64,000 nucleotides of DNA, taken from the NCBI GenBank assembly GCA_017938725.1, contig JAGBAW010000003.1, positions 2,980 through 66,979 of the forward strand, in the 5' to 3' direction. Each line of letters begins with the position of its first letter. The first letter of the stretch is position 1. Source of the stretch: Bacilli bacterium. Lineage in GTDB: Bacteria > Bacillota_I > Bacilli_A > RF39 > UBA660. This document shows positions 3,753 through 33,674 of this stretch, in pieces. The position numbers and the translations under genes were made by a program. The notes under the pieces are model-generated. The model was not told the DNA's origin and did not search any database. It worked only from the letters and a program-made list of their open reading frames with translations.

Positions 3753-3770
3753 TTAGGGATGAATCCCTAA
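3753..3770. repeat. perfect 8-bp inverted repeat TTAGGGAT-ga-ATCCCTAA in a non-coding stretch of the element
   Basis: Seen directly in the sequence. It is not followed by a T-run. Confidence 0.4.
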
Positions 3771-4004: not shown

Positions 4005-4553
4005 TTAATTTTTTTTGATTTCTTGCAAAGTTAACTGTTTATTTTTTTCTTTTCGCTTTTCATTTTTATATGCTTTATTTAAATTATCTAATAGTTTTAT
4101 CCATCCACTACCAATTACTTCTTCTGCAAAGGCAATGCCATCTGTGGAATAGTGAAGCATTGTTTGACCTAATAGTGAAATACTCATTTCGCTATGACCT
4201 TGTTGATGAGTAAGCTTACTAATTTCTTCCCAAGATTCACCATTAGCAATATGTTCCATTATTTCTCCAGCTTCTTCATAAGCATGTAATTCTGATTCTA
4301 TTGAATAATCATCAACTTCTCCAGCTAGATATATAAGTTTTTGTATTGTTTTTGTCCAATTAACCTTCTCTTCTTCTTTACAATAAACAGAATATTTTGA
4401 CATCTTTTGTATATAGTCATTAGCTATATAGCTTAAAAATTTTCCATCTTTAGTTATAAAGAGAAGTTTTGACATTTTCATATCTCTGACAGCATTTTCT
4501 GCTGTTACTTCAAACATTTTATCTACAAATTCTTTTGATTCTTCTTTTGACAT
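4005..4553 (-). CDS. hypothetical protein (182 aa), element cargo
   Basis: Compact ORF co-oriented with and immediately downstream of the RhuM-like gene. No motifs recognised. Confidence 0.5.
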   Translation of the reverse strand: MSKEESKEFVDKMFEVTAENAVRDMKMSKLLFITKDGKFLSYIANDYIQKMSKYSVYCKEEEKVNWTKTIQKLIYLAGEVDDYSIESELHAYEEAGEIMEHIANGESWEEISKLTHQQGHSEMSISLLGQTMLHYSTDGIAFAEEVIGSGWIKLLDNLNKAYKNEKRKEKNKQLTLQEIKKN

Positions 4554-4612
4554 CTAAAATCCCCCAGTCAATTGTTTTATATTGTATACTTTAAAATAAT
4601 TATTAGCAATAC

Positions 4613-5599: not shown

Positions 5600-5618
5600 A
5601 AGCTAATCTCCTTTCTAT

Positions 5619-6203
5619 TTATTTATTTTTATTTTTATTTCCAACTTCTTTTGCGTTTTCTAAAATATCATTAATGAATTCATTCATTGTACAACCATAT
5701 ATAGGTTTGTCATATTCATAAATATGTAAACAATTTAATATTTCCTCATTTATAGGATTTCTTTGTTTATTGTGTTCAATATGTTTTTCTTTTTGATAAT
5801 TAATAGCATCTTGATAAGTTTCAAATTCATATATTCCTCTATTATTGAAATCAGAGTGTTCAAAATAATAATACTTTCCATTATTTTCAAATACTAAATA
5901 TGTATGAGTTAAATAGGAATTATCATAAGGAAGTTCAAACCATATAAAAAATGTTTTAAAATTATAATTATGAGTTTTGAACCAATCTCTTTCTAATTCA
6001 ACCTGATCCCAGCAATGTCCATATCCTACTTTGATTAATCTTTCTGGACTAGATAAATGCCATTTTGTTTGACAGCCCTCTTGAAATTCTCGGTTATTCC
6101 ATGGTACATATTCTTTTTCACTATCATCTACAAATCCATACTTTATATTATCATCCATATATTTTAATAATTGTTCTGGTGTTTTAACATCATTATATTT
6201 CAT
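5619..6203 (-). CDS. hypothetical protein (194 aa) with conserved His/Cys pair (GYGHCWDQ), element cargo
   Basis: ORF with ATG and short spacing to the RhuM gene. A possible Cys/His hydrolase, but the fold is not assignable by eye. Confidence 0.5.
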   Translation of the reverse strand: MKYNDVKTPEQLLKYMDDNIKYGFVDDSEKEYVPWNNREFQEGCQTKWHLSSPERLIKVGYGHCWDQVELERDWFKTHNYNFKTFFIWFELPYDNSYLTHTYLVFENNGKYYYFEHSDFNNRGIYEFETYQDAINYQKEKHIEHNKQRNPINEEILNCLHIYEYDKPIYGCTMNEFINDILENAKEVGNKNKNK

Positions 6204-6738: not shown

Positions 6739-7488
6739 ATGAATAAAGTATTAGAAATAAAAAATCTCTATAAAACATATTATACAAAAGACTCAGAGAT
6801 TGAGGCATTAAAAGACATCAATTTAAAAATAGAAGAGAAAGATTTTGTAGGAGTAGTAGGTCCCTCTGGTTGTGGTAAATCAACTTTGCTATCAATAATT
6901 GGGGGACTTGAAAATCAAACTTCTGGAGAAATAAAGAAAGATGATAATTTAAAAATAGGGTATATGCTTCAGGACGATTGCTTGTTTCCATGGCTTACTA
7001 TTTATGAAAATTGTCTAATTGGACTTAAAATAACAAAAACATGTACTAAAGAAAATACGGATAATGTAAAAAAATTACTTGAAACTTATGGATTAAAAGA
7101 TTTTATAAATAATTATCCAAAAGATTTATCAGGGGGTATGAGACAAAGAGTTGCACTTATAAGAACTCTTGCCTTAAAACCAGATTTACTTTTACTTGAT
7201 GAACCATTTTCAGCACTTGATTATCAAACAAGGCTTTCTGTATCAAATGATGTTTTGAATATAATAAAAAAAGAAAATAAGACATTAATAATTGTTACAC
7301 ATGATATATCAGAGGCGATAAGTATGTGTAATAAAATAATAGTTTTATCAAAAAGACCATCTACAATAAAGAAGGTTTATAATATTAATTATAATTTTGA
7401 TAGGGAAAATCCTGTAAAAAGTAGAAGTAGCAAACAATTTATGGAATATTATGAGAAAATTTGGGAAGATCTTAATAATGAAAAGTAA
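6739..7488 (+). CDS. ABC transporter ATP-binding protein (NitT/TauT family)
   Basis: Walker A GPSGCGKST, signature LSGGMRQR, Walker B LLLLDEP, H-loop THD. Confidence 0.9.
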   Translation: MNKVLEIKNLYKTYYTKDSEIEALKDINLKIEEKDFVGVVGPSGCGKSTLLSIIGGLENQTSGEIKKDDNLKIGYMLQDDCLFPWLTIYENCLIGLKITKTCTKENTDNVKKLLETYGLKDFINNYPKDLSGGMRQRVALIRTLALKPDLLLLDEPFSALDYQTRLSVSNDVLNIIKKENKTLIIVTHDISEAISMCNKIIVLSKRPSTIKKVYNINYNFDRENPVKSRSSKQFMEYYEKIWEDLNNEK

Positions 7489-8263
7489 TGGGTATAAAAA
7501 ATATCTAAAAAGAATAAAAAGGGATAATATTCTTGTATTTGCTACTCAAATTATTATAGTTATATCATTTATTGTTATATGGCAAATTTTAGCTGACAAA
7601 CGAATAATAGACACATTTTTAACATCAAGCCCAGCTAAAGTATATTCAACTATTATTGATTTAATCAAAGCAGGTAACTTTTGGAATCATATATTTACTA
7701 CAGTGTATGAAATTATTATAAGCTTTATATTAGGTAATTTTATAGGTATATTTGTAGCTAGTATATTATGGTTTAATAAATTTTTGGCAAGAGTATTTGA
7801 ACCATTTTTAACAATACTTAATAGTTTACCGAAAGTAGCACTTGGACCACTTATAATAATATGGGCTGGTGCGAATATTAAATCTATTATATTAATGTCA
7901 CTTTTAATATCTGCGATTATTAGTATTATTAATATATATAATAGTTTTAAAAGTACAGATATAAATAAAATCAAGATAATTAAATCAATGGGTGGAAATA
8001 AGTTTCAAATTTATAAAAATGTAATTTTAAGAGATAATTATATAAAGATAATAGAATCTTTTAAAATAAATGTAAGTATGTGTTTTGTTGGTGTAATAAT
8101 GGGTGAGTTATTAGTATCAAAAGAAGGAATAGGTTATTTAATAATGTATGGATCACAAGTATTTAATATGAATTTTGTAATTACAGGTGTAGTACTTTTA
8201 GTAATTCTAACAGTTATATTATATTATGTGATTAACTATATAGAAAAGGTCTCTAGAAAATAG
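7478..8263 (+). CDS. ABC transporter permease (NitT/TauT family)
   Basis: Multi-TM hydrophobic protein overlapping the ATPase stop. Completes the SBP-ATPase-permease operon. Confidence 0.85.
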   Translation: MKSNGYKKYLKRIKRDNILVFATQIIIVISFIVIWQILADKRIIDTFLTSSPAKVYSTIIDLIKAGNFWNHIFTTVYEIIISFILGNFIGIFVASILWFNKFLARVFEPFLTILNSLPKVALGPLIIIWAGANIKSIILMSLLISAIISIINIYNSFKSTDINKIKIIKSMGGNKFQIYKNVILRDNYIKIIESFKINVSMCFVGVIMGELLVSKEGIGYLIMYGSQVFNMNFVITGVVLLVILTVILYYVINYIEKVSRK

Positions 8264-17294: not shown

Positions 17295-18344
17295 ATGAAG
17301 GTGTCAGTTATTATTCCAGCATATAATGTTGAACAATATATATCGAGGTGCTTAGATAGTGTTATTAATCAAGTATATAGAAATTTAGAGATAATAGTTA
17401 TTGATGATGCAAGTACAGATAATACAAGTCGAATCATAAAAGAGTACGCAGAAAAAGATAATAGAATAATACCTTTTTATTCAAGTGTTAATAAAGGCGT
17501 GAGTGCTACTAGAAATATTGGCTTAGAGGCATGTACAGGTGATTATATAGTATTTGTAGACTCAGATGATGAGTTAACAAAAGAAGCAATAAGAAGGATG
17601 ATAGATATAGCAGTTAAATACAATTCAGATTTTGTTGATAGTTATCACTTATTGTACTATACAAAAGCAAATAAGAAACAATTATCTTTTACAGAGCATA
17701 AAATTCCTAAAAAATTATTAGTATTAGGAGCAGTTAATGAAAATAAAAAAATATTGAGTATGTATACATATATAACAGGTAAATTATATAGAAGAGACTT
17801 AATAGATAATTTAAGGTTTGATGAATCCTTAAACATATATGAAGATTTAGTTTTTGATAATGAATTAAAATCTAGAGTAAAAAACTATGTATTCTTGAAT
17901 AAAGTTTTATATTTATATTATCAAAGGGAGGATTCTCTTATTAATACCTTTGGTAAAAAACATTTAATGTTTTTAGATGCTGCAAGAAAAGTAAAGGAAA
18001 TATATCTTAACTATAATAAAGATATTAAAGATAAAGTCTCAGCAATATTATTTCAAAATATAGTACTAACCTTGTTTACCAAAGTTATTAAAAATGATGA
18101 CAATCTTGGCGACAATGTTGAAACTACTAAAAAATGTTTAAATGATTTGATAAATATATTTCCTGATTATCAGGATAATAAATATTTAAATAAATTAATA
18201 AAGAAATTTGTTATTAAATATATAAATGATGATGAAAAATTAAAGAAACTTATTAAAAAACTTCAGAAGAAGAATCTAATAAGACTATATTTTAATTATT
18301 TATCTATATTTAATAAATATGAAATAAAAAATCCATTACTTTAG
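17295..18344 (+). CDS. family-2 glycosyltransferase
   Basis: N-terminal VSVIIPAYN...DDASTD...VDSDD GT-A fold motifs. Confidence 0.8.
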   Translation: MKVSVIIPAYNVEQYISRCLDSVINQVYRNLEIIVIDDASTDNTSRIIKEYAEKDNRIIPFYSSVNKGVSATRNIGLEACTGDYIVFVDSDDELTKEAIRRMIDIAVKYNSDFVDSYHLLYYTKANKKQLSFTEHKIPKKLLVLGAVNENKKILSMYTYITGKLYRRDLIDNLRFDESLNIYEDLVFDNELKSRVKNYVFLNKVLYLYYQREDSLINTFGKKHLMFLDAARKVKEIYLNYNKDIKDKVSAILFQNIVLTLFTKVIKNDDNLGDNVETTKKCLNDLINIFPDYQDNKYLNKLIKKFVIKYINDDEKLKKLIKKLQKKNLIRLYFNYLSIFNKYEIKNPLL

Positions 18345-18408
18345 AATTTAAAGTAATTTTTTCATTTATCTAATCTTATTAGAATAAACTTTAATAGGGA
18401 ATGATAAT

Positions 18409-18987
18409 ATGAATTATATAAATAATAGTATTTTACATAACTACATGATTGATGCAAATTATGATGTTACTGGATATATTGCGCTTGATAAAAAAGTTAA
18501 TGGTATAATAAATAAATACATAAACGATTTTGTATATAATTTACCTCCATATAGTGTCGAGCCTAATGTTATATATTACTTTAACTTAAATAATGAAAAA
18601 TATGAGTATAAAAAATATTTATCATATGTATATAAAATTGAAGAATATACTGGTGGAGCACATCCTAGTCATTATATATTTACAGTTATATATGATAAGA
18701 AAAATAATAAAATAATATCAATAATTGATTTTATAAAATATGATAAGATGTTACTAAAAAAATTATCAAAATTAAGTAGAGTAGAATTAATAAATAACTA
18801 TGATTTTGACTTACCTGATGATAATTTAAAATCAATTTTTTATGATGGAACAGAAGGCATATTAAAAAATTATAAAAATATTCTGCCTACAGAGAGTGGT
18901 TTATTGATTATATTTGAAAGATATCAAATTGCGCCATATTATATGGGAGAATTTAGTATTATTTTACCATATGATAAACTTAAGTAA
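18409..18987 (+). CDS. DUF3298/DUF4163 (RsiV/PdaC C-terminal-like) domain protein
   Basis: Characteristic YTGGAHP motif. Confidence 0.6.
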   Translation: MNYINNSILHNYMIDANYDVTGYIALDKKVNGIINKYINDFVYNLPPYSVEPNVIYYFNLNNEKYEYKKYLSYVYKIEEYTGGAHPSHYIFTVIYDKKNNKIISIIDFIKYDKMLLKKLSKLSRVELINNYDFDLPDDNLKSIFYDGTEGILKNYKNILPTESGLLIIFERYQIAPYYMGEFSIILPYDKLK

Positions 18988-19091
18988 AATTACTTGCATT
19001 TTTCCTTTTGATATGTTAAAATTGTTATTGCATGAAAGCAATCCGCTATTTATTTGTAATATGATTGCTGGGTAGAAAGGAAGACATACGT

Positions 19092-19433
19092 ATGAGTAAT
19101 ATTATTGAAAAGATTACTGCTAAACAAATTAATCCTAATATTCCAGAATTTAGAGTTGGTGATACTTTAAGAGTGGATGTTAGAATTATAGAGGGTAAAA
19201 GAGAACGTATTCAAGCATTTGAAGGTGTTTGTGTTGCCAAAAGAAGTGGTGGTATATCTGAAACCTTTACTGTTAGAAAAATGTCATCAGGAATTGGTGT
19301 AGAAAGAATTTTTCCTGTTAATTCACCAAAAATCGATAAAATAACAGTTGTAAGAAAAGGTAGAGTCAGAAGAGCTAAACTAACTTTCTTAAGAGGATTA
19401 GTTGGTACATACAGAATAAAAGAAAGAAAATAA
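19092..19433 (+). CDS. rplS: 50S ribosomal protein L19
   Basis: Highly conserved L19 sequence ([11 protein letters not shown]...GVERIFP...). Confidence 0.95.
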
Positions 19434-19457
19434 GGCTTTGTTTGCCTTATTTTTGTT

Positions 19458-20003
19458 ATGGAGGATAAAATGGAGAAAAATGAAAATAAGAAAAAAGAAA
19501 CAATTAAAACAATATTAACCTATGTATTTATTATTATTGCAGTTATAATTATTAGAGTATTTTTTATAGATCCAGTTAGGGTTGATGGTGAGTCTATGAA
19601 TACTACACTTTCTGATGGCGAAATAATGCTTTTAAATAAAATAGTGTATAGGAAAAATGATATTCAAAGATTTGATATAGTTGTTATTGATGAGGGAGAT
19701 AAATATATTATAAAAAGGGTAATAGCTCTTCCAGGAGAAACTATAGAATATAAGAATAATGTACTTTATATAAATGGTAAAGAAATGAAAGATCCATATC
19801 CATCAACTGAAACAGATGATTTTAATATTACCGATATAGGGCATATAAAAGTGCCAGGTGATACTTATTTTGTAATGGGAGATAATAGAAGTGATTCGCT
19901 AGATAGTAGATATCCATCTGTTGGGGTCATTAAGAAAGATCAAATACTAGGGAGGGCAAAATTTGTAATATGGCCTTTTAATAAATTTGGTAAAGTAGAA
20001 TAG
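19458..20003 (+). CDS. lepB: signal peptidase I
   Basis: GESMNTTL (catalytic Ser box), IKRVIALPGE, GDNRSDSLDSR boxes. Confidence 0.85.
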   Translation: MEDKMEKNENKKKETIKTILTYVFIIIAVIIIRVFFIDPVRVDGESMNTTLSDGEIMLLNKIVYRKNDIQRFDIVVIDEGDKYIIKRVIALPGETIEYKNNVLYINGKEMKDPYPSTETDDFNITDIGHIKVPGDTYFVMGDNRSDSLDSRYPSVGVIKKDQILGRAKFVIWPFNKFGKVE

Positions 20004-20005
20004 AT

Positions 20006-20190
20006 GAAATAAGTTCTATAAAAATAGATAGAAGAAAGTCTAGTAATGAACGAATTTTAGATTTTATTATGAAAGTAAAGAATCCATATATATTTAAAGT
20101 GAATGGTAAATTAGTTAGAATTAGATTTTCAGATACAGATAAAACTGCAGAAGATTGCTTAACTAGAGTTTTAGAAAATTTATATAGATA
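20006..20190 (+). repeat. L-repeat copy 1: ~185-bp, ~85% identical copy of the 3' end of the 96-aa ORF at 25563..25748 (no start codon; gene fragment)
   Basis: Translates EISSIKIDRRKSSNERILDFIMKVKNPYIFKVNGKLVRIRFSDTDKTAEDCLTRVLENLYR-stop, against the full gene's ...ELTSIKIDRRKSSEERILDFIMKVKNPYIFKINGRLVRIRFSDTDKTAEDCLTRVLENLYR. Confidence 0.7.
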
Positions 20191-20202
20191 GGTGATGATT
20201 AT

Positions 20203-20709
20203 ATGATAGTATATCATTTTGATATTAATGATTGTTTAAAAAAGAATTCACAAAAACAAGTATTTAAAAAATTGCAATCTAATTTATTTAATACATTTAA
20301 TTATGATAAAGGTAAAGAATATATTCACTTTTTTAGATATAAAAGTTTTATACAACAATTTTTTGATGATGATAATGGTGAAAGTATAATTTTAAGTGCC
20401 GATATTCCAGATGAGTTATTAGAAAAATGTAAAGGATTTGGGTTTTATATTATAGAAAATCAAGAGATGCCTATTCCAGAATATGCTGTACCTTTAGAAG
20501 AATTTAATGAGAATTGTGTTATTGGAGTAGAAAAAATACAAGAAGCAAATATTGAATTTGAAGATCTTAATCAATATAAAAAATATTTAGAGACAATAAA
20601 AAAATTAAAATCAAACGGTATGGATGTTCCATCCATTACAGTAAACTTATTGAATAGCAGTGTCTGTTCTCTAATAGAAAATGTTCAAACAGAAAATAAA
20701 AGAAAGTGA
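20203..20709 (+). CDS. hypothetical protein (168 aa), variable gene of cassette unit 1
   Basis: ORF with AGGTGATGA RBS. No motifs. Bounded by L- and R-repeat copies. Confidence 0.5.
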   Translation: MIVYHFDINDCLKKNSQKQVFKKLQSNLFNTFNYDKGKEYIHFFRYKSFIQQFFDDDNGESIILSADIPDELLEKCKGFGFYIIENQEMPIPEYAVPLEEFNENCVIGVEKIQEANIEFEDLNQYKKYLETIKKLKSNGMDVPSITVNLLNSSVCSLIENVQTENKRK

Positions 20710-20751
20710 TAAAAATGGACAATCGACAAAATTCTACGAATATAAACTCGG
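20705..20751 (+). repeat. R-repeat copy 1: ~47-bp imperfect copy of the rbgA start region (encodes decayed MDNRQNSTNIN... 26-aa stub)
   Basis: AAGTGATAA.AATG...AATCGACAAAATTC.AC.AATATAAACT matches 26298..26351 with a few mismatches. Confidence 0.55.
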
Positions 20752-20843
20752 ATATCGGCAAATATGTAAAACTACTAGGAAACCTTTATAAATAAATTAA
20801 AAAGTATTATATGACTTAATAATATGAATAGGAGATTATAACA

Positions 20844-21449
20844 ATGAAAATAATTTTAGCTTCATCCTCAAAACAAAGACAAGATATTTTAAAAATGATT
20901 GGATTAAAATATGAAATTATAACAAGTAATGTAGATGAATGTAGTATTGAATCAGAACCAGATAAATATGTAGAAGAACTTTCATTAAACAAAGCAAAAT
21001 CAGTTAGTAATCAAATTGATTATGATGCAATTATTATTGCAGCTGATACAATTGTTTATAGTAATAATAAAAAATATGAAAAACCAAAAACTAAAGAAGA
21101 TGCTTATAGTAATTTAAAGGAATTATCAGGAACTAAAAATTCAGCATATACAGGAATAACGATAATAGATTTATATAAAAATAAAACTATAACATTTTCC
21201 TCAAAAGTAGATGTTTATTTTAAAAATATATTAGATAATGAAATAGATTGGTATATTAATAATGAGGATAAACTATTTAAAAATTGTGGATATGTTCCTT
21301 TAGGTAAGGCATCTTTATTTATAGATAGAATAGACGGTGATTACAATACTCTATTAGGTATTTCGCCTAGTATAGTATTTGAAAAACTAAAAGGACTTGG
21401 ATATAGTATAACTGATTTTGATTTTGAAAAAGGAAATGAAACAAAATGA
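20844..21449 (+). CDS. Maf-family nucleoside-triphosphate pyrophosphatase-like protein
   Basis: N-terminal IILASSS..R..IL and overall Maf-like pattern. AGGAG RBS. Confidence 0.65.
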   Translation: MKIILASSSKQRQDILKMIGLKYEIITSNVDECSIESEPDKYVEELSLNKAKSVSNQIDYDAIIIAADTIVYSNNKKYEKPKTKEDAYSNLKELSGTKNSAYTGITIIDLYKNKTITFSSKVDVYFKNILDNEIDWYINNEDKLFKNCGYVPLGKASLFIDRIDGDYNTLLGISPSIVFEKLKGLGYSITDFDFEKGNETK

Positions 21450-21584
21450 AGAAAGTAAAAGTTTTACATCTACGTCGATTAACTGGTATAGTACGAATTA
21501 TCTAAACACTTATCAAGAGCATTGAAAAATCAATATTTTTGGAATTTTTAACTTTCGTATTTTGATAAAAATGCAGATGAATAT

Positions 21585-22200
21585 ATGTCAAATAATATTA
21601 TTGAAGTTCAAAATATTAAAGTAAATGTAACAAATATAAATGAAAAAGATTATATTTGTATTTCTGATATAGCAAAAGCTAAAAGTGATAAGTCACGTGC
21701 AGCTGATGTTATAAGAAATTAGTTACGTAATAGAAGTACGTTAGATTTTTTAACTGCTTGGGAACAATTATATAATCCAAATTTTAAAGTGTTCGAATCT
21801 GAACACTTTAGAAAACAAGTAGGATTATTAACATTTACACCAAGTGTTACTGACTGGTGTGAAAAAACAAATGCTATTGGAATATATGCCAAAATTGGGC
21901 AAATATGGTGGAACATATGCTCATAAAGACATTGCCTTTGAATTTGCATCAGCAATTAGTCCTGTTTTTAAATTATATTTAATAAAAGAATTTGAAAGAT
22001 TAAAAGATATAGAAAACCAAAATAGAGAATGGGATGTAAAAAGAATTTTAACAAAAAATAATTATTTAATACATACAGATGCTATTAAAAATTATATATT
22101 GCCTGATAATGATTATTATAAGAATAAAGAATGGTTAAAGTATGCAGAAGAAGCTGATATTTTGAATGTTGCGTTATTTAATACAACTGCTAAAAAAGTA
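21585..22200 (+). pseudogene. KilA-N domain protein, disrupted (in-frame TAG at 21718 where W is expected, +1 frameshift near 21897)
   Basis: NIKVNV..DYICISDIAKAK...AADVIRN-stop-LRNRSTLDFLTAWEQLYNPNFK then, after the frameshift, KYGGTYAHKDIAFEFASAISPVFKLYLIKEFERLK. This is the canonical KilA-N signature. Confidence 0.65.
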
Positions 22201-22203
22201 TCA

Positions 22204-22863
22204 AAAAATAATAAAGTTATCATTGCCGATTGTAAAAATATTGATAACAATTTTATTAAAAATAACTTTGATAACTATGAAAATGTATATTTTTTCAAAT
22301 GCGATATATCTAAAAAAGAAGATATTTTAACTTTAAAACAATATGTTTTAAATAATTTTAAAAAATTAGATTGTTTAGTTTGTTGTGCGGGGATAATGCC
22401 TTTGTCATGCAGCATTGATGATATAATAGCTAAAAATGTAGACAGAACAATAGATGTTAATTTAAAAGGTACCTTTAAAAGTTTAGATATACTTGGTAAC
22501 TTTATAAAAGAAACGTCCAAAATTGGTAGTATAGTAACCATATCTTCTGTTGATGGATTAATCGGAGAGCCGTATGGTGTTATTTATTCAACTACAAAAG
22601 CAGGAATTATTTCATTAACTAAATCATTTGCTAGATACTTTAAAGGTGACATTAGAGTAAATTGTGTTGCACCAGAACTTATAGATAAACCACTAACAGA
22701 CAGTACAGGATAAGACCCAAATTGGATAATTGACTATTCTATTATTAAAAGAATTGGTAAACCAGAAGAAATAGCGGATAGTATAATATTTTTATTATCT
22801 GATCAAGAATCATATATAACAGGTCAAGTATTAGTAGTAGATGGTGGTTTTATTTTAAAATAA
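22204..22863 (+). pseudogene. SDR-family dehydrogenase fragment (N-terminally truncated, frameshift near 22713)
   Basis: LVCCAGI...NLKGTF...ISSVDGLIGEPYGVIYSTTKAGIISLTKSFA (YxxxK) followed, in another frame, by [34 protein letters not shown]. Confidence 0.6.
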
Positions 22864-22954
22864 AAAATCAAGAGCAACCAAAATTAAGATAAAATTTAAG
22901 TGTTGTTTTGTATATAATTAGTATTTAATAATAAAATAAAAATGGAGGGATAAA

Positions 22955-23308
22955 ATGAATAATAATGAATATAAAAAGACTTTATCTGAAATTAGAACAA
23001 CATTAACAGAAACTACCAAACCTATTGATTATATAGATACTAGGAAGATGTCAAAAAAAGAAAAAGATAATTTAATAATAGAATTACAAAACAAAATTCA
23101 TAGTTTGCAAAGCCAGTTATTAATTAGAAAATCAGTTGATGAAAGATACATTAATGGATTAATTCAAAGTAAATATGATGAAACAATGAAATTAATTCAT
23201 AATCCAGTATTAACATTACCAAGTGGTACACAAATACAATTTAGTTCATTATCCTCTGAACAACTTGAATATTTAGAAAGTTTAGCCGAAAAGAAAAAGA
23301 AAATATAA
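22955..23308 (+). CDS. hypothetical protein (117 aa)
   Basis: ORF with GGAGG RBS. Coiled-coil-like. No motifs. Confidence 0.45.
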   Translation: MNNNEYKKTLSEIRTTLTETTKPIDYIDTRKMSKKEKDNLIIELQNKIHSLQSQLLIRKSVDERYINGLIQSKYDETMKLIHNPVLTLPSGTQIQFSSLSSEQLEYLESLAEKKKKI

Positions 23309-23417
23309 AATTTGTAAAAAAGTTGAGAAAAAACTCAACTTTTTAAGTTGATATAATAAAAACTTTATATTTTTTGATGCATTTGATGTATAATAGTCAA
23401 TACAAATGAGGTGGATT

Positions 23418-23711
23418 ATGATTGATAATGCACAAAAATATACAAAATTACCTTTGAATCCATCTGAAGTAATAAGAGCAAATGATTTATTTAACTCTAT
23501 AATTTTATATGATAAAACCGGTGAATATTCAAAGATAAAAGAAGAGACACAAAAATATTTAAATATAGCAAATAGTGGAGTATTTGAATATGAAAATTTG
23601 GCAGAAGTATATCCACCTATGGGAGAATTAATAAAAATGGAATTAGAAACACAAGATGTAAAAGAATTTACTAAAACAAAAACTTTTGAATTCATTAAAA
23701 ATATGTTGTAA
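23418..23711 (+). CDS. hypothetical protein (~97 aa)
   Basis: ORF with GAGGTGG RBS. Confidence 0.45.
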   Translation: MIDNAQKYTKLPLNPSEVIRANDLFNSIILYDKTGEYSKIKEETQKYLNIANSGVFEYENLAEVYPPMGELIKMELETQDVKEFTKTKTFEFIKNML

Positions 23712-23836
23712 TTTTTTGAATAACTTTGATTATTATTGAAATTTAGATTTTAATAATAATTTTTTTGTTTTGTAAAAATATCACCATATTAATATGGGTA
23801 TAATTATATTAATTAAGATTACTTGGAGGTTTGTAA

Positions 23837-24240
23837 TGAGAATAGGAATAGATATTGATGGCGTATTAACCGATATAGAACAATGGAAATTATATTATGG
23901 TATTAAGTTTTATTTTGAAAAATATAATAAATAAATATTAGATAATGAAGAGTATGAAACAACTGATATATTTAAAATTGATAGTAAATTAGATGAAGAA
24001 TTTTGGGAAAAATATTTTATAGAATACTCTATAAATGTTGATGTTAGAAAGTTTGCTAGTAAGGTTATAAAAAAAATAAAACAAAAAAAAGAAATAGAAG
24101 TAATTGATAGAAATATTATAATGGAATTTATTGATAATATATTTGTCTATGAAGATAGTAACATAAAAATAGTATTTAAAAATAATAATGAATTCTTAGA
24201 AGCATTAAAGTTTCTAAAATCACATAATTGTGTGATATAA
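23837..24240 (+). pseudogene. HAD-type 5'(3')-deoxyribonucleotidase-like gene remnant
   Basis: MRIGIDIDGVLTD start typical of the family, then a premature stop after 32 codons and further out-of-frame fragments. Confidence 0.4.
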
Positions 24241-24566
24241 TAGATTAGAAATTCGTCTTTATAAAAGATTTTTAATGAAGAATAATCTAAGGAGTGATTA
24301 ACATGGGTAAATGGGACAAATATAAAAAATAAAGATAAAGTAGAAAAAAATCAAAATAATGATGGTATCGCATCTAGTAATATCAACTCGTAAATGGAGA
24401 AATAAAGAAAACACCTTATAAATAAAGAAAAAGATATTAAATTCTTTTTATATATTTAAGGTTATTTCTGCTAAGAATTATTAAAAATATGGGGTAATGG
24501 AGACATAAGAAAAACTTTATATAAGACACTATATAAAATAAATAGTTAACAGAGGATGAGGTAATA

Positions 24567-25421
24567 ATGAAGAAAATAGGAGATAAATATACTAACAGTA
24601 CTTTTGAAAATATAAAGCATATTGATGATTATGGAAATGAATATTGGCTTGCACGTGAATTGCAAAAAGTGTTGGAATACAAAGAATGGAGAAATTTTAA
24701 AGTTGTAATAGATAAAGCCATAACGTCTTGTGAAAATAGCAAATTTAATGTTTTGGATCATTTTGTTGAGTTCAACAAAATGATAGAATTAGGTAAAACA
24801 GCAAAAAGAAAAATCATTGAATATAAACTTTCTAGATATGCTTGTTATTTAATAGTACAAAATGCGGATCCTAATAAAGAAGTTATTGCCTTGGGACAAA
24901 CATATTTTGCTATTCAAACAAGGAAACAAGAAATAACAGAACAAGAATATGATTCTTTATCAGATGATGAAAAAAGATTCTACCAAAGAAAATTAACAAA
25001 ACAAGGAAATTATACGCTCCAAAAAGTTGCATCATCTGCTGGCGTTAAAAATATGGCTGAATTTCATAATGCAGGATATAGAGGATTATATAATGGTGAA
25101 ACTGCTAATGATATTTTTAAAAGAAAAAAATTGCGCTATAGAGAAGATATTTTAGATAATATGAATGAAGATGAATTAGTTGCTAATTTATTTAGAATAA
25201 ACCAAACTAAGCAAAGACTTTTGAAAGATAATGTACAAGGTGAAAAAGAAGCAAAGGATGTGCATTATGAAGTTGGTAAAAAAGTTAGAAAAGCGATTGC
25301 GGATATTGGTGGAATGATGCCTGAAGAAATGCCAACACCCAAAAAGAGTCTGAAAGATCTTGAAAGAGAAAAGAAACAATTAGAAAATAAGGAAAAAAAG
25401 AAACTTGAAGTAACAAAATGA
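24567..25421 (+). CDS. DNA-damage-inducible protein D (DinD)-like / Bro-N-like protein
   Basis: GNEYWLARELQKVLEYKEWRNF...AKRKIIEYKLSRYACYLIVQNADP pattern typical of DinD-like phage-associated proteins. Confidence 0.6.
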   Translation: MKKIGDKYTNSTFENIKHIDDYGNEYWLARELQKVLEYKEWRNFKVVIDKAITSCENSKFNVLDHFVEFNKMIELGKTAKRKIIEYKLSRYACYLIVQNADPNKEVIALGQTYFAIQTRKQEITEQEYDSLSDDEKRFYQRKLTKQGNYTLQKVASSAGVKNMAEFHNAGYRGLYNGETANDIFKRKKLRYREDILDNMNEDELVANLFRINQTKQRLLKDNVQGEKEAKDVHYEVGKKVRKAIADIGGMMPEEMPTPKKSLKDLEREKKQLENKEKKKLEVTK

Positions 25422-25457
25422 GAAAAACAATTATATGAGTTATGACAGAAAACGAAT

Positions 25458-25748
25458 GTGAGATTTAATAATATGAAAAAATATAATATAAAAAAATTAA
25501 GAGAAAAATTAGAACATTGTAGAAATGTAAATCTTGATGATGTAAAATTAGAAGATGTTGATGAATTAACTTCTATAAAAATAGATAGAAGAAAATCTAG
25601 TGAGGAAAGAATATTAGATTTTATTATGAAAGTAAAAAATCCTTATATATTTAAGATAAATGGGAGGTTAGTTAGAATTAGATTCTCAGATACTGATAAA
25701 ACAGCAGAAGATTGTCTTACCAGAGTTTTAGAAAATTTATATAGATGA
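25458..25748 (+). CDS. hypothetical protein (96 aa); its 3' ~185 bp constitute L-repeat copy 2
   Basis: Intact ORF. Its C-terminal 60 aa are duplicated as a start-less fragment at 20006..20190. Confidence 0.55.
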   Translation: MRFNNMKKYNIKKLREKLEHCRNVNLDDVKLEDVDELTSIKIDRRKSSEERILDFIMKVKNPYIFKINGRLVRIRFSDTDKTAEDCLTRVLENLYR

Positions 25749-25837
25749 AGAGCAGTTAAGTTCTGGTTGTTTAGGTTGGTTTAAAAAAAATTATGTATGC
25801 TCTATGTCAAGAGGAAAAATGAAAGGAGTTTATTTAA

Positions 25838-26293
25838 ATGGATGTTAATAAAATTATTAACGAATTGAATTTAAGAGTTCCTAGTATTGTAAAAGGAATA
25901 AAATTAGTTAAGTTTCAATATTGTGCTAGCCAAGATTTTGTTGCTTTATTTTATATAGATACTATATTTTATACAGATAGACTATTCTTAGAGTTTAATC
26001 ATGAAGAACAATTATTTATAGTGGCACACGAGGCTATGCATTTTATGATAAGAGAACAAAAACGAGATTTAAAAAATAATAATAAAAATGAAGAATTGTT
26101 AAATTATGTTGAAGATGCATGGATTAATCAATTATTAATAAAATTGGGGTTAACTCCTCCTAAAGATGTTGTATTGATAGAAGATGCATTAAATTATAGT
26201 ATTGATGAACTTTATAAAATGTATTTACTTAGAATAAATGAGGTAAAAAGTTATTTTTGTCCAGTGGATATTGATAGTATTATAAAGAAATAA
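25838..26293 (+). CDS. hypothetical protein with HExxH motif (putative small metallopeptidase-like), variable gene of cassette unit 2
   Basis: IVAHEAMHFM motif. AAAGGAG RBS. Confidence 0.5.
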   Translation: MDVNKIINELNLRVPSIVKGIKLVKFQYCASQDFVALFYIDTIFYTDRLFLEFNHEEQLFIVAHEAMHFMIREQKRDLKNNNKNEELLNYVEDAWINQLLIKLGLTPPKDVVLIEDALNYSIDELYKMYLLRINEVKSYFCPVDIDSIIKK

Positions 26294-26297
26294 AGGA

Positions 26298-26351
26298 AGT
26301 GATAATAATGAATAATAGTAATCGACAAAATTCGACAAATATAAACTGGTA
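26298..26351 (+). repeat. R-repeat copy 2 (native rbgA ribosome-binding/start region)
   Basis: Matches 20705..20751. Confidence 0.55.
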
Positions 26352-27177
26352 TCCCGGCCACATGGCTAAAACCAAAAGGCAAATAAAAGAAAAAATAGAA
26401 TTAATAGATATAATTTATGAGGTAATTGATGCTAGAATACCTATTTCATCAAAAATAAAGGATATAGATGATATAGTTAAAAATAAACCAAGAATTATAA
26501 TAATGACTAAAGGTGATCTATGTGATTTAAATAAAACAAATAAACATATTAGATATTATGAAGATTTGGGTTATAAAGTAGTACTTGTAGATTTAGTAAA
26601 TAATAAAAATTTAGATAAAATTAAAACTGTTACTGATGAGGTTCTAAGAGAAATAAATAAAAAAAGAGAAGAAAAGGGGTTAAAAACAAGAACAGCAAGA
26701 GCTCTTATAATAGGAATACCTAACGTAGGTAAATCAACATTAATAAATAGACTTGCAGGTAAAAAGGTAGTAAATGTTGGAGATAGACCAGGTGTAACAA
26801 AACAACTATCTTGGATAAGAATTAGTAAAGATGTAGATTTAATGGATTCACCAGGTATTTTATGGCCTAAAATTGATAATGAAACTCAGGCACTTAAACT
26901 TGCATGTTTTTCAGCAATAAAAGAAGAAATACTTCCTATTGATGAAGTTGCATGTTATATACTTAAATATATGTTTAATAATTATAAAGATAATTTAAAT
27001 GAAAGATATGGAAAAATTACCTTAGAAGAGGATGATTATTCTCTAGCATATGATGCGATAGGAAGAAAAAGAGGATGTATTCTAAGAGGTAATGAAGTAG
27101 ATTATGATAAAGTATCTAATTTAATAATTAGAGATTTAAATGAAGGCTATTTAGGCAAGGTGACATTTGATGATTAA
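26299..27177 (+). CDS. rbgA: ribosome biogenesis GTPase A (YlqF/RbgA)
   Basis: NWYPGHMAK N-terminus; circularly permuted GTPase motifs GIPNVGKST and DSPG. Confidence 0.9.
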   Translation: MIIMNNSNRQNSTNINWYPGHMAKTKRQIKEKIELIDIIYEVIDARIPISSKIKDIDDIVKNKPRIIIMTKGDLCDLNKTNKHIRYYEDLGYKVVLVDLVNNKNLDKIKTVTDEVLREINKKREEKGLKTRTARALIIGIPNVGKSTLINRLAGKKVVNVGDRPGVTKQLSWIRISKDVDLMDSPGILWPKIDNETQALKLACFSAIKEEILPIDEVACYILKYMFNNYKDNLNERYGKITLEEDDYSLAYDAIGRKRGCILRGNEVDYDKVSNLIIRDLNEGYLGKVTFDD

Positions 27178-27808
27178 TATGACAGAATATGAAGAAAAAT
27201 TATATAATGAAGGATATAGTTTTATTGGTGGATGTGATGAAGCTGGTAGAGGTCCACTTGTTGGTCCTGTTGTCGCAGGCTGTGTAGTATTTCCTAAAGG
27301 ATATAAAAATGAATTAATAAATGACTCTAAAAAATTAACTGAGAAGAAAAGAGAACAATTATATGATATAATAATTAATGATGCCTTGGCATATGGAATT
27401 GGTATTGTATCTTCTAAGGAAATAGATGAAATAAATATCCTTGAGGCATCAAGAAAAGCAATGATACTTGCATATAATGAAGCAAATAAAAAAATTAATA
27501 TTGACTATTTATTGACAGATGCGATGAAAATTAGTACACTAAATATTCCTGTATTGGATATAATTAAAGGAGATGCAAAAAGTGTAACTATTGCGGCTGC
27601 ATCTATAATAGCTAAAGTAACAAGAGATAGGATTCTTTATGATTTAGATTCTAAATATCCTGAATACGAATTTAGAAAGCATAAAGGCTATCCAACAAAA
27701 AGACATTTAGAATTAATTGAAAAATATGGAGTATTTGAAGAGTATAGAACAACATATAAACCTGTAAAAAATATAATTGATAGAGGAATATTTAAAAAAA
27801 AGGGCTAA
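27167..27808 (+). CDS. rnhB: ribonuclease HII
   Basis: GCDEAGRGPLVGPVV catalytic motif. Confidence 0.9.
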   Translation: MMINMTEYEEKLYNEGYSFIGGCDEAGRGPLVGPVVAGCVVFPKGYKNELINDSKKLTEKKREQLYDIIINDALAYGIGIVSSKEIDEINILEASRKAMILAYNEANKKINIDYLLTDAMKISTLNIPVLDIIKGDAKSVTIAAASIIAKVTRDRILYDLDSKYPEYEFRKHKGYPTKRHLELIEKYGVFEEYRTTYKPVKNIIDRGIFKKKG

Positions 27809-27833
27809 TAATATATTAGGAAGGAATGATTAA

Positions 27834-29864
27834 ATGGGAAAAAATTTAGTTATAGTTGAATCACCAGCTAAAAGTAAAACTATTGAAAAATATTTAGGTG
27901 ATGGGTACAAAGTATTATCATCTAAAGGACACATTAGAGATTTAGCTACTTCTGGTAAATATGGTTTTGGTGTAGATATAGAAAATGGATTTAAACCAAC
28001 ATATGAACCAATTAAGGGAAAGAAAAAAGATATAACAGCACTAAAAAAAGAAGTAAAAGCATCTGATAAAGTATATTTAGCAACCGACCCTGATCGTGAA
28101 GGAGAAGCAATTTCTTGGCATTTAAAAGATGCCCTTGATATTGATGATAATAATTATGAAAGAATAGTATTTAATGAAATAACTAAAGATGCAGTAGTAA
28201 ATTCATTTAAAAATGCAAGAAAAATAGATGAATTAATGGTTAGAAGTCAGGAAACTAGAAGAATATTAGATAGAATTATTGGTTTTAGATTAAGCAAACT
28301 TATGCAATCTAAAACTGGTGGTAAAAGTGCTGGTAGAGTTCAATCAGTTGCACTTAAGTTAATAGTGGACAGGGAAAGAGAAATTGAAAAATTTATTCCT
28401 GAAGAGTATTGGACTATTAAAGCAATATTTCCTGATTTTGAAGCAAACTTATTTGGATATATTGATGATAAAAAATTAGAGATAAAAAATGAATTGGAAT
28501 CAAAGAAAATAATTAATAAACTTTCCAATAGTTATAAGATAGAATCTACAGAAAAGAAAAATAAGAATAAATCAAGTAAACCACCATTTATAACAAGTAC
28601 AATGCAGCAAGAAGCTGCAAATAAATTAAATTTTTCATCTAAGAAAACAATGAGTGTAGCTCAAAAATTATATGAAGGTATTAATATTGGAAGTGAAACA
28701 GTAGGTTTAATTACATATATGAGAACTGATTCTATTCGTTTATCAAATGATTTTATTTCTAGTACTCTTAAGTATATTGAAGTAAATTATGGTAAAGAAT
28801 ATGTTGGAAAAGTAAAAACACAAAAAAAGAGTGAAAATGTTCAAGATGCCCATGAAGCAATTAGACCAACTAGTATACTTAGAACTCCAGATAGTATAAA
28901 GGAGTATTTAACTACTGATGAATATAAACTTTATAAACTAATATATTATAGAGCACTTGCATCCTTAATGAAAGAAGCAAAACAAGCTACAACTACAGTA
29001 GTTCTTGATAATAATGATTATAAATTTAAAGCTACAGGAACAGTTACAACATTTGATGGTTATATGAAAGTATATAAAGAGTATGAAAAAACTGAGGATA
29101 GTATATTACCTGATTTTGCAAAATATAATTCAGATGTAATAATTACAGATAAAGTAGAAGAAAAGCAACACTTTACGGAAGCTCCAGCAAGATACTCTGA
29201 ATCATCTTTAATTAAGGAAATGGAAAAATTAGGTATTGGCAGACCATCTACATATGCTACTACAATATCTACAATAGTGGATAGAGGATATGTAAATATT
29301 GTAGATAAAAGATTTAATCCAACTAAAATAGGGGTAGAAACAACAGATAAACTACAAGAATTTTTTAGTAATTTAATAAATGTTAAATATACTGCTAAAA
29401 TGGAAGAGGATTTAGATAATATCGCATCAGGAGAAATAATTTGGAATGAATTATTAGAAGAATTTTATAAGGAGTTTGAACCAATGGTAAAAGATGCATT
29501 TGATAATATGGAGAAAAAAGAACCAGAAAAAACTGGAGATATATGTCCAGAATGTGGAAAAGAACTAGTAAAAAGAAATGGAAGATATGGGGAATTTATC
29601 GCATGTTCTAACTACCCAGAATGTAAATATATTAAAAAGGAAGAGAAAAAACAAGTAGAAGTATGTGACTGCATAAAATGCGGAAGTAAAATAGTAGAGA
29701 GAAAAACAAAAAAGGGTAAGGTATTTTATGGATGTTCAAATTTTCCAAAATGTAAAGAAGCATATTGGGATAAACCAATAGGAAAATTATGCCCAGAATG
29801 TAATAATATGCTTGTTGAAAAAAATGATATTATAAAATGCTCAGCATGTGATTATAAGGAATAG
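27834..29864 (+). CDS. topA: DNA topoisomerase I
   Basis: TOPRIM N-terminus (LVIVESPAKSKTI), catalytic Tyr region, C-terminal C4 zinc ribbons. Confidence 0.95.
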   Translation: MGKNLVIVESPAKSKTIEKYLGDGYKVLSSKGHIRDLATSGKYGFGVDIENGFKPTYEPIKGKKKDITALKKEVKASDKVYLATDPDREGEAISWHLKDALDIDDNNYERIVFNEITKDAVVNSFKNARKIDELMVRSQETRRILDRIIGFRLSKLMQSKTGGKSAGRVQSVALKLIVDREREIEKFIPEEYWTIKAIFPDFEANLFGYIDDKKLEIKNELESKKIINKLSNSYKIESTEKKNKNKSSKPPFITSTMQQEAANKLNFSSKKTMSVAQKLYEGINIGSETVGLITYMRTDSIRLSNDFISSTLKYIEVNYGKEYVGKVKTQKKSENVQDAHEAIRPTSILRTPDSIKEYLTTDEYKLYKLIYYRALASLMKEAKQATTTVVLDNNDYKFKATGTVTTFDGYMKVYKEYEKTEDSILPDFAKYNSDVIITDKVEEKQHFTEAPARYSESSLIKEMEKLGIGRPSTYATTISTIVDRGYVNIVDKRFNPTKIGVETTDKLQEFFSNLINVKYTAKMEEDLDNIASGEIIWNELLEEFYKEFEPMVKDAFDNMEKKEPEKTGDICPECGKELVKRNGRYGEFIACSNYPECKYIKKEEKKQVEVCDCIKCGSKIVERKTKKGKVFYGCSNFPKCKEAYWDKPIGKLCPECNNMLVEKNDIIKCSACDYKE

Positions 29865-32453: not shown

Positions 32454-33038
32454 ATGATGAATGTAAATAATAGAAGTATTGTTATTGAAATATTTAATAA
32501 AAATGTAGATAAAATCATAAAAAAATCCAAGAGATTATTAAAATTATGTGATGAAAAAAATTATAAATTAAAGTTTAATTATTTAGATGATAACATTTCA
32601 AAACAAAAACTATTTTGGATTAAAAATATAGAAAAAGCAATCAATATAAAGAATATTAAAGAAAGATATAGTTTTATATATGATACTGTTTGTGAATATA
32701 TTGATAAAAAATATATGGAATGTAATTATTGTGATTTTAAGGATGACGTTTGTATTTATTTTAGAAATAATCCAAAGATAATGCATAAAAATGGATGCTG
32801 CTATAGCGATGCAAGGGGTGGACTTTGTAAAAATTTAGTAAATAACTCTTGCAGTATAAAATCGATATCTTGTAAATTATACTCCTGTGAATATTTAAGG
32901 AAAAATAAAATTAATTTTAGAATGAAAGCTATTCCATTAATAAAGTACTTTTTCAATATAAAGCAAAAGTATTATATTAAATATAGTTTCTTTAAGGATA
33001 AAGATTATATGATTAATAAATTAATTGAAAATAAGTAG
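32454..33038 (+). CDS. Cys-rich hypothetical protein (paralog A)
   Basis: 194 aa. C-terminal half has ~11 Cys (IYDTVCEY...CNYC...C...NGCC...GLC...NSC...ISC...YSC). Paralogous to the next ORF. Confidence 0.5.
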   Translation: MMNVNNRSIVIEIFNKNVDKIIKKSKRLLKLCDEKNYKLKFNYLDDNISKQKLFWIKNIEKAINIKNIKERYSFIYDTVCEYIDKKYMECNYCDFKDDVCIYFRNNPKIMHKNGCCYSDARGGLCKNLVNNSCSIKSISCKLYSCEYLRKNKINFRMKAIPLIKYFFNIKQKYYIKYSFFKDKDYMINKLIENK

Positions 33039-33674
33039 GTGTATGAAATGAGTTTAAAAAGAATGGTATTTGATAATAAATTAATATTACAGGTAAGTGA
33101 TGAAAATATAGAATATATAATATCAAAAACAAGATCTATTATTAAATTTTGTGATAATCATAATTTAGTTGTTGAAATCATATACAATAGTAAAAAAATA
33201 GATGAAAAATATTTAAAGAAAGATATATCAAAAAATATAAGAGACATAATTACTATTATGCATGCCATAAATATAAAAAATATACCTGAAAGGTATGACT
33301 ATATATATGATACAGTATGTGCTTATTTAGATGAAAGAATAAAAACTAATTATTGTGAATTTAAAGATAATATATGTGTTAAATATAGGAAAAAAGGATC
33401 TAATCATGAAAATGGGTGCTGCGAATGTAAAGGAAGAGGAAGATGCAAATATTTAATTGATGGGGTATGTACAATGAAAAGTTGTATGGCATGTAAACTA
33501 TTTACTTGTTATACTTTAAAAAGGATGGGTATTACTCAAAATATAAATGATTTTGCATTAACTAAATATTTCTTTACTACTAAACAAAAGGATATACTAC
33601 AGTTTAGTTACTGGACACCAAAAGAAATTGTTATGGAAAAATTATTAAAAGAAAGTAAAATGTTAATAAGATAA
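33039..33674 (+). CDS. Cys-rich hypothetical protein (paralog B)
   Basis: 211 aa. Shares AINIKNI.ERY..IYDTVC.Y.D....C.FKD..C......NGCC....G.C..L....C..KS..CKL..C with the preceding ORF. Confidence 0.5.
   Translation: MYEMSLKRMVFDNKLILQVSDENIEYIISKTRSIIKFCDNHNLVVEIIYNSKKIDEKYLKKDISKNIRDIITIMHAINIKNIPERYDYIYDTVCAYLDERIKTNYCEFKDNICVKYRKKGSNHENGCCECKGRGRCKYLIDGVCTMKSCMACKLFTCYTLKRMGITQNINDFALTKYFFTTKQKDILQFSYWTPKEIVMEKLLKESKMLIR

Follow-up and report, generated by a model that had tools for sequence, protein, structure and literature searches.

The genes lepB (signal peptidase I) and rbgA (ribosome biogenesis GTPase A) are separated by a patch of ~6.3 kb, from the lepB stop codon (20003) to the rbgA start, in a 64,000-nt stretch of contig JAGBAW010000003.1 (assembly GCA_017938725.1; the whole stretch is called the window). 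The question raised by this locus is how the patch came to lie there and why parts of it are repeated. The host belongs to the uncultured Bacilli of the gut and has a low GC content (~25%); the genome records nearest to it are those of 'Clostridium sp. CAG:433' and of a metagenome-assembled genome from the Hadza gut, with RbgA 82% identical. Relatives were sampled as 80 loci (L001-L080) around rbgA homologs, onto which the window proteins were mapped. The patch is quite probably a tandem array of four decayed integrative elements, serially inserted at a single attachment site in the 5' codons of rbgA, and the catalyst was most likely a large serine recombinase (LSR).

In the proposed mechanism, a circular element would carry an attP in which a central TG lies between a right arm (P) and a left arm (P'). 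Because the target is the 5' end of an essential gene, the element must supply a ribosome binding site (RBS), a start codon and an N-terminal peptide; the P arm would accordingly encode an RBS and, from an ATG onward, a short leader peptide with I-N as its last residues. Recombination would take place at the TG of the AAC-TGG (Asn-Trp) codons that open the INWYPGHM motif of RbgA. Following integration, rbgA would be translated from the RBS and leader of the element, and the earlier RBS and leader would stay upstream as a dead stub fused to the P' arm of the newcomer. Successive rounds would shift older units toward lepB, and deletions would strip them of recombinase and transfer genes. In the window, the native stub and the left part of the first unit (U0) would have been deleted, flush with the lepB stop, and the right end of the last unit (U3) would now supply the rbgA start.

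Probable attachment-site junctions upstream of rbgA

Two repeats had been pointed out in the initial annotation of the window, one (L) with a copy directly after lepB and one (R) with a copy at the start of rbgA. The R repeat is genuine: 20699-20759 and 26292-26358 align over ~60 nt with 51 of 68 aligned columns identical, one 6-nt indel and a core (20721-20759) at 85% identity. Each R copy comprises the rbgA RBS, the start codon and leader codons ending AAC-TG, then a conserved element left end. The earlier suggestion of a site-specific integration that brought its own copy of the flank appears essentially right for this repeat, whose copies, judged from their sequence, would be attachment-site relics at the rbgA 5' end. 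Two more rbgA-leader stubs (21429-21485 and 24289-24389), as well as a 45-residue relic of an LSR C-terminus (24103-24237), were found in addition to what had been annotated. The patch can be read as four units (U0-U3) with three internal junctions (20748, 21484 and 24388) and a live junction at 26347-26348:

19470-20003, + strand: lepB (signal peptidase I); Pfam Peptidase_S26 on the called gene
20004-20747: unit U0; last 187 nt of DUF6870, p168, type-A leader stub
20699-20749, + strand: junction J1 (R copy 1); RBS, ATG and type-A stub (MDNRQNSTNIN) to 20747; centre TC at 20748-20749
20750-21483: unit U1; left end (palindrome 20783-20796), maf, type-F leader stub
20750-20800, + strand: U1 left end; P'-type arm GGATATCGGCAAATATGTAAAA and short palindrome CCTTTATAAATAAA (20783-20796)
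21429-21485, + strand: junction J1b; RBS, ATG and type-F stub MKQNEESKSFTSTSIN; centre TG at 21484-21485, P' arm GTATAGTACGAATTATCTAAAC next
21486-24387: unit U2; decayed KilA-N/dehydrogenase chimera, p117, p101, 45-residue LSR C-terminal relic, RBS and decayed leader
24289-24389, + strand: junction J2; RBS AAGGAGTGA, ATG and decayed leader with an in-frame stop, ending ...AATATCAAC at 24387; centre TC at 24388-24389
24390-26346: unit U3; partly deleted left end (palindrome 24412-24427), Bro-N, DUF6870, mp151, RBS and type-A leader now serving rbgA
24390-24470, + strand: U3 left end, partly deleted; palindrome CACCTTATAAATAAAG at 24412-24427
26292-26348, + strand: live right junction attR (R copy 2); RBS, ATG (26308) and type-A leader MNNSNRQNSTNIN; crossover TG at 26347-26348
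26308-27177, + strand: rbgA (ribosome biogenesis GTPase A), the target gene; Pfam MMR_HSR1 and RsgA_GTPase on the called gene

The stub at J1 has the same architecture in five other loci (L007, L009, L054, L093, L108). The U1 left end was detected by nhmmer at E=6.6e-4 and gave a local alignment z-score of 6.0; a near-identical arm lies at L108 1713. J1b aligns to the junction at L062 8417 (z=4.5), and the U3 left end, which follows J2, aligns to the left end in L009 (z=4.8). Five control segments gave z-scores of 2.2 or less. The layout of J2 is that of L004 6560-6680, namely an LSR relic followed by RBS, leader and AAC-TG. If TG is the crossover dinucleotide, the two TC junctions (20748-20749 and 24388-24389) could no longer recombine with the live site, and the array would be locked.

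The live crossover position falls at the Asn-Trp codons of INWYPGHM in rbgA. Leaders were typed from an alignment of the 90 nt preceding the conserved WYPGHM codons. RbgA N-termini form discrete leader types (A-F) that are discordant with the RbgA phylogeny: the window has type A (M-N-N-S-N-R-Q-N-S-T-N-I-N), while in L001 and L002, its closest relatives, the leader is of type B (M-N-E-N-K-T-N-I-N). The RBS and first 13 codons of rbgA in the window thus appear to be element-derived. Types A and B had both been considered as P arms of elements; this was dropped for type B, which is also present at an empty site (L015) and is probably native.

Additional leader stubs occur in many of the loci, and in 22 of the 26 stubs found by leader similarity alone the leader (ending ...AA(C/T)) is followed by TG. 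The sequence past the TG of a stub is a conserved element end and not rbgA. This left end begins with an arm such as (A/G)TTGATTACGATTTAT or TGCGATACGGATTTATGGAAAC, continues ~15 nt on with a short palindrome, CCCTTATAAATAAAGG, and then with ...TTTTTACA.... Across the family the junction reads RBS-ATG-leader...AAC-TG-P' arm-CCTTATAAATAAAGG, which the three internal junctions of the window resemble. Matches to a profile of the left end were confined to the + strand and to the region upstream of rbgA.

The stop codon of lepB directly abuts the truncated unit U0. lepB is the conserved left neighbour and no recombination site; rbgA is the only recombination flank.

Occupied sites, empty sites and recombinases in relatives

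The lepB and rbgA genes had been described as normally adjacent, and this arrangement was found in four relatives (L015, L016, L017, L055), in which lepB abuts rbgA and the site is empty; in three of these (L016, L017, L055) RbgA starts M-x-INWYPGHM. In the remaining relatives the interval measures 0.9 to ~9 kb and holds genes that are nearly all co-oriented and mostly confined to a single genome. In 24 of the 80 loci the contig breaks off no more than 400 nt upstream of the att TG, as compared to 3 of 80 within 400 nt beyond rbgA. Such breaks upstream of the TG are a signature of strain heterogeneity, or of repeats, breaking assemblies. Serial insertion at this site would explain why the locus is so variable across this large group of gut Bacilli, uncultured and with small genomes, and why ~30% of assembled contigs break just upstream of rbgA.

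More than 10 independent contigs from the strain of the window, obtained in one project, carry the arrangement at 100% identity. No single-unit variants were seen among these contigs; the only departure is L093, from the same strain in another study, and unit variants occur in other species. L093 is 100% identical to the window over 18265-26348 and then reads TG-TTCGATAGG...CTCCCATAAAATAAGGGT, followed by a ParB_N gene; this stretch past the TG matches the left-end profile at E=1e-13. In a second species at least seven assemblies (L098-L104) share an array, and in L105 an element carrying genes for ParA, ParB, an LPXTG-type adhesin and sortase starts right after ...CAAATATAAAC-TG. In a third species the site is empty in L109 and L110, and in L108 an element with ParA/ParB, adhesin and sortase genes occupies it at the exact TG. 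Occupied and empty versions thus differ exactly at the TG in three species, and the site is in current use. The earlier labelling of the locus as a recombination hotspot is strongly supported. The pattern AAY-TG-GTTGATTACGATTTAT was found in at least 120 metagenome contigs. Some 70 (~70) of the longer ones were read; nearly all have an RBS-ATG-leader stub ahead of the TG and, downstream on the same strand, rbgA, ParA/ParB, KilA-N, RhuM or YhcG genes.

LSRs, with Resolvase, Recombinase and Zn_ribbon_recom domains, form one recurrent protein cluster near rbgA, and these domains were confirmed in L035, L068 and both proteins of L048. An LSR gene directly precedes rbgA in seven loci (L023, L035, L048, L051, L059, L067, L069), and in L030 one lies a single gene away. 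In L035 a complete element of 3.9 kb is present in the order attL-BroN-u417-LSR402-attR; it is bounded by a leader stub, TG and left end on one side and by RBS, leader, TG and rbgA on the other, and the LSR (402 aa) is its only recombinase. LSR att sites have a 2-bp invariant centre with inverted arms. When the ends of the L035 element were joined, the reconstructed attP read GTTTTCC-16 nt-TG-16 nt-GGAAAAC, and that of L030 read GGGTTGCA-16-TG-16-TGCAACCC. Elements with leader types C, E and F (L035, L030, L062, L050) have symmetric attP arms.

Serine-recombinase elements appear to target and repair the start of an essential gene, with mobile DNA repeatedly rewriting the start of RbgA. Dozens of natural recombinase/attP/attB sets acting on one conserved site would be available, which could serve as integration tools for bacteria that have no genetics.

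Units of the patch and the DUF6870 gene

The genes and gene remnants of the four units are as follows:

20004-20191, + strand: U0, start-less 3' relic of DUF6870 (L copy 1); 187 nt match to 25560-25746
20203-20709, + strand: U0, cargo p168, function unknown; intact 168-aa open reading frame (ORF)
20844-21449, + strand: U1, cargo maf (nucleotide pyrophosphatase), intact and the sole gene of the unit; Pfam Maf E=4e-44
21585-22197, + strand: U2, frameshifted KilA-N gene; Pfam KilA-N; homology to an intact 280-aa gene stops at 22197
22198-22713, + strand: U2, N-terminally truncated short-chain dehydrogenase fragment; Pfam adh_short E=2e-28, residues 116-286 only
22955-23711, + strand: U2, cargo p117 (22955-23308) and p101/p97 (23406-23711); ORFs, called as genes in same-strain contigs
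24103-24240, + strand: U2, relic of an LSR C-terminus (ending FVYEDSNIKIVFKNNNEFLEALKFLKSHNCVI and stop codon); tblastn
24567-25421, + strand: U3, Bro-N domain protein, 284 aa; Pfam Bro-N E=3e-11
25473-25748, + strand: U3, intact DUF6870 gene (L copy 2); PF21757
25838-26293, + strand: U3, cargo mp151, a 151-aa HExxH protein; Pfam DUF2201_N (putative metallopeptidase family) E=5e-8

The L repeat (20003-20189 and 25560-25746) is likewise real, with 187 nt at 88% identity (22 mismatches, no gaps) and translations identical at 58 of 62 residues. The intact protein (91/96 aa) matches PF21757 at 68.7 bits (gathering cut-off 24.4; E=4.4e-19), and part of the truncated copy (20069-20191) is also annotated as PF21757 on contig L095. 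The U0 relic is 77-88% identical in nucleotides to full-length copies in L009, L054, L006, L012 and L067 (71% to L054 9383). DUF6870 homologs numbered 1030 at E<=0.001, the best 120 of the 1030 being at least 77% identical; no match was found in phage records. In none of the 15 copies examined does homology extend past the stop codon; another gene follows within 10-25 nt, and it differs between copies. The L repeat is therefore two copies of a conserved element gene situated beside the right end, marking two related cassettes, and not a recombination site. The idea that two alleles of one slot stand in tandem is not supported by these findings: the units number four instead of two, lepB is no flank, and the L repeat is a gene and no site.

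In these gut Bacilli, DUF6870 copies lie mostly within a three-gene unit followed by leader A, in which a RhuM, YhcG/DUF1016, KilA-N or Bro-N gene precedes DUF6870 and a variable gene X follows it. U3 matches this plan exactly and U0 is a truncated version of it. As had been noted from the window, the two pairs of L and R copies enclose different genes: an ORF of 168 aa, for which no Pfam match was found, and the 151-aa DUF2201_N protein. The predicted single-slot versions (DUF6870, a different gene X, rbgA) were also found in relatives (L006, L012, L013, L054, L098, L109), and in L108-L111 four three-gene units stand in tandem, each set apart by stub, TG and left end. Recombinase-bearing elements have the order small resolvase, DUF6870, LSR, LSR, leader, rbgA (L048, L051, L069), or DUF6870, LSR, LSR in L067. 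A search of plasmids with DUF6870 gave two distant matches in Clostridia, Vescimonas fastidiosa pMM35_01 (L106 9001-16235) and Subdoligranulum variabile plasmid 6 (L107 9001-11071), in which DUF6870 lies directly upstream of 1-5 consecutive 'recombinase family' (LSR) genes. This gene position suggests that DUF6870 is an accessory factor in recombination. As a conserved partner of LSR genes in two bacterial classes, DUF6870 is a candidate accessory or directionality factor, a poorly known class of protein. An AlphaFold model (mean pLDDT, the predicted local distance difference test score, of 67; predicted template modelling score, pTM, of 0.44) is too poor to suggest a function, and a literature search for DUF6870 returned no paper.

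The interval between the two DUF6870 units had been described as holding phage-type and decayed genes. This stands for KilA-N, which is frameshifted, and not for maf, which is intact. The KilA-N remnant is 87.8% identical in nucleotides to its counterpart in L030 and 87.4% to that in L068 (~85% aa identity), and its C-terminal part is joined in frame to the dehydrogenase fragment in a chimeric ORF of 289 aa (21844-22713), which is called as a single gene in public contigs. The LSR relic (45 residues, 24103-24237) matches residues 484-528 of the L048 protein LSR528 (E=9e-7, tblastn) and is also matched by seven further ORFs of the LSR cluster, with 70% nucleotide identity to L051 9798-9956. The Bro-N gene is 78-84% identical in nucleotides to copies in L077, L047, L068 and L034. 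KilA-N, Bro-N and DUF6870 genes recur just upstream of rbgA in relatives. At the nucleotide level they are 84-88% identical to those of genomes in which RbgA reaches only 53-60% amino-acid identity, and the cargo is therefore horizontally mobile. p168 is 36% identical in amino acids to L012 5281-5904. p117 and p101/p97 gave no Pfam match. A short ORF at 23794-23934 (MRIGIDIDGVLTDIEQW...) resembles by eye the N-terminal motif of a HAD-type phosphatase or nucleotidase and is probably another gene fragment of U2.

The possibility that maf is a chromosomal gene trapped in the patch was considered and dropped: a left end lies upstream of it, its own leader stub lies downstream, and the maf homolog of L002 (71% aa) has the same stub after it. 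We think that maf is element cargo, though this is not proven. The composition profile was uninformative, the patch (GC 0.19-0.28) not being distinct from its flanks (0.18-0.32). A promoter and terminator scan was likewise uninformative, with promoter-like sites fewer than in shuffled sequence and one weak terminator. An Rfam scan of 18.5-27.5 kb gave no match.

Competing explanations and known systems

Several observations weigh against serial insertion by LSRs. Two of the three internal junctions of the window (J1 and J2) read TC and not TG, and the left-end profile (nhmmer) finds J1b only weakly (E=0.56) and J2 not at E<=1. No intact recombinase occurs in any of the four units (ORF list, Pfam, tblastn), and LSR catalysis is proposed from relatives. 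Units with a type-A leader, U0 and U3 included, never occur with an LSR in the sample, and the type-A leader is not the mirror image of the P' arm of its own unit. ParA/ParB left ends and LSR right ends were never found on one contig and are linked by arm symmetry only. An exact scan for the attP palindrome GTAATCAACTGGTTGATTACG in Joint Genome Institute (JGI) metagenome contigs gave no match. Finally, L001, one of the two nearest relatives (RbgA 82% identical), has in the region 2790-3830 a duplicate of the rbgA 5' end of ~125 nt that extends past the TG to codon ~30, which does not fit a crossover at TG; the duplicate and the real rbgA are separated by a gene of the class A beta-lactamase family (PF13354, E=6e-49), and this duplication looks like a homologous insertion. 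Type-A cassettes could be mobilised by action in trans, by cis-mobilisation together with a neighbour followed by excision of the neighbour, or by homologous exchange via DUF6870 and the leader.

A possible, if rather unlikely, explanation is that the three-gene units (RhuM, YhcG, KilA-N or Bro-N, then DUF6870, then X) are dedicated non-autonomous cassettes with their own left end and a leader-A right end. LSRs of incoming conjugative elements would capture and release them in trans with DUF6870 as accessory or directionality factor, and the locus would be an integron-like platform built on a serine recombinase, not a graveyard of decayed elements. Each capture would then give an essential GTPase of ribosome assembly a new translation start and a new N-terminal peptide. 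The four regular cassettes of L108-L111, with their stub-TG-left end bounds, are in keeping with this, as are the same plan in U3 and in units of L054, L098 and L012, the co-orientation of all genes with rbgA, the small and diverse cargo (GNAT acetyltransferases, HAD phosphatases, a beta-lactamase-family protein, Fic, SUFU, MBL) and the position of DUF6870 directly upstream of LSR genes in distant Clostridia. However, no circular cassette or attP was observed, the asymmetry of leader A and the cassette P' arms makes recognition by one LSR doubtful, decay together with homologous shuffling could yield the same pattern, and the structure model of DUF6870 is too poor (pLDDT 67) to lend it a role.

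It is improbable that homologous recombination alone built the array, i.e. that DUF6870 and rbgA bound a polymorphic slot and unequal or Campbell-type exchange at these flanks placed two alleles in tandem with no dedicated recombinase. DUF6870 and the leader, at 85-90% nucleotide identity, are long enough for homologous recombination; the break of DUF6870 homology at the stop in 15 copies, with a varying gene X, is expected of flank-anchored exchange; and the 125-nt duplication in L001, running past the TG, is what a Campbell insertion would give. Against this, the stubs run into a conserved non-rbgA element end that begins right past the TG. This account also deals with two alleles and not with four units, of which the maf unit and the unit from KilA-N to the LSR relic have no DUF6870; flanks of DUF6870 and leader A cannot explain these two because their stub leaders are of other types (F and E). 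Moreover, occupied and empty pairs differ by whole ParB- or ParA/ParB-type elements at one base. It is very improbable that the site is that of conjugative elements with tyrosine integrases, nearby serine recombinases being cargo or the property of other elements: streptococcal Tn1549/Tn5252-family integrative and conjugative elements (ICEs) do enter the rbgA 5' end via tyrosine integrases (PMC4701971), but Pfam found no tyrosine integrase among ~40 array proteins scanned, LSR genes directly precede rbgA in seven loci, the site is built around an invariant 2-bp centre with inverted arms and not around a long identical core, and the only recombinase of L035, which is bounded by both junctions, is an LSR.

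Serial insertion by LSRs has parallels in known systems. In the SCCmec/SCC (staphylococcal cassette chromosome) islands, mobilised by the LSRs CcrAB or CcrC at an attB in the rlmH/orfX 3' end (PMC3146451), serine-recombinase elements also occupy one site in a conserved housekeeping gene that is not inactivated, form tandem arrays delimited by copies of the site, often have paired recombinase genes, include many units with no recombinase, and carry diverse cargo. Here, unlike in SCCmec, elements enter rbgA at its 5' end, in uncultured Bacilli of the gut; the likeness is one of organisation. The Dehalococcoides ssrA islands (DsiB/DsiA; PMC3146451) are similar in forming tandem islands at a single-copy essential gene, with a gene-end repeat and adjoining conserved sequence, and in having a module of large and small serine recombinases with a ParB-domain gene; many of them lack the module and are read as cis-mobilizable. 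They differ in using the 3' end of a transfer-messenger RNA gene with a 20-bp repeat, as compared to coding 5' codons and a repeat of ~50-60 bp here, and the units here are much smaller (0.7-3 kb).

The streptococcal ICEs at rbgA (PMC4701971, PMC7168690) share the gene and its end with the system described here and leave decayed derivatives at the site, and their direct repeats overlap the upstream intergenic region (PMC4701971); unlike the LSR elements, they use tyrosine integrases, and the RbgA N-terminus is reported to be unchanged (PMC4701971), whereas here the leader varies (A-F). Accretion of cis-mobilizable elements (CIMEs), as in the ICESt1/ICESt3 model (PMC5704250), involves integration, decay to a unit with att sites but devoid of recombination and transfer genes, and further integration at the gene-proximal att, and the patch fits a CIME or tandem accretion array: its bounds (J1, J1b, J2, attR) are att-derived and none of its four units has an intact recombinase. 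The cases behind that model involve tyrosine integrases at 3' gene ends, whereas an essential gene is targeted and repaired here; serine-recombinase integrative and mobilizable elements are described in that review as usually disrupting dispensable genes (PMC5704250). Integron arrays are alike in placing small, co-oriented, unrelated genes at one site, the newest nearest the site, with conserved recombination sequences between them. Unlike integrons, the locus has no IntI, attI or attC, its sites combine an rbgA leader with P' sequence, and a recombinase of their own is part of the complete elements; the array proteins (~40 scanned) include no tyrosine recombinase, and the patch gave no Rfam match. 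Distinctive here are an LSR site in the coding start of an essential gene with in-frame leader replacement, very small units, and the DUF6870 cassettes. Open-access texts, searched for LSRs in connection with the ribosome biogenesis GTPase, yielded no description of this system.

On the - strand within 1255-6203, the window encodes a second LSR, which is intact, 569 aa long and equipped with Resolvase, Recombinase and Zn ribbon domains; a RhuM-family gene (4613-5599) and small ORFs accompany it. The region is flanked at 590-1225 and 6739-8263 by a possibly truncated NMT1-like binding-protein gene and ABC-transporter genes, and looks like a separate serine-recombinase element at another site. 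The identity of this recombinase to those found at rbgA in L035 and L048 is only ~25%, and to the L068 3783 LSR it is 31%. Beyond rbgA, rnhB and topA are adjacent in the window (27808 to 27834); they are separated by a gap of ~2 kb in L047, L048, L052, L054, L063, L069, L071, L074-L076 and L079, and the rbgA-rnhB gap also varies among relatives. Farther downstream, two neighbouring uncharacterised genes have ~165 nt in common at 71% identity (32637-32801 and 33264-33422); these genes (194 and 208 aa in public gene calls) are probably tandem paralogs.

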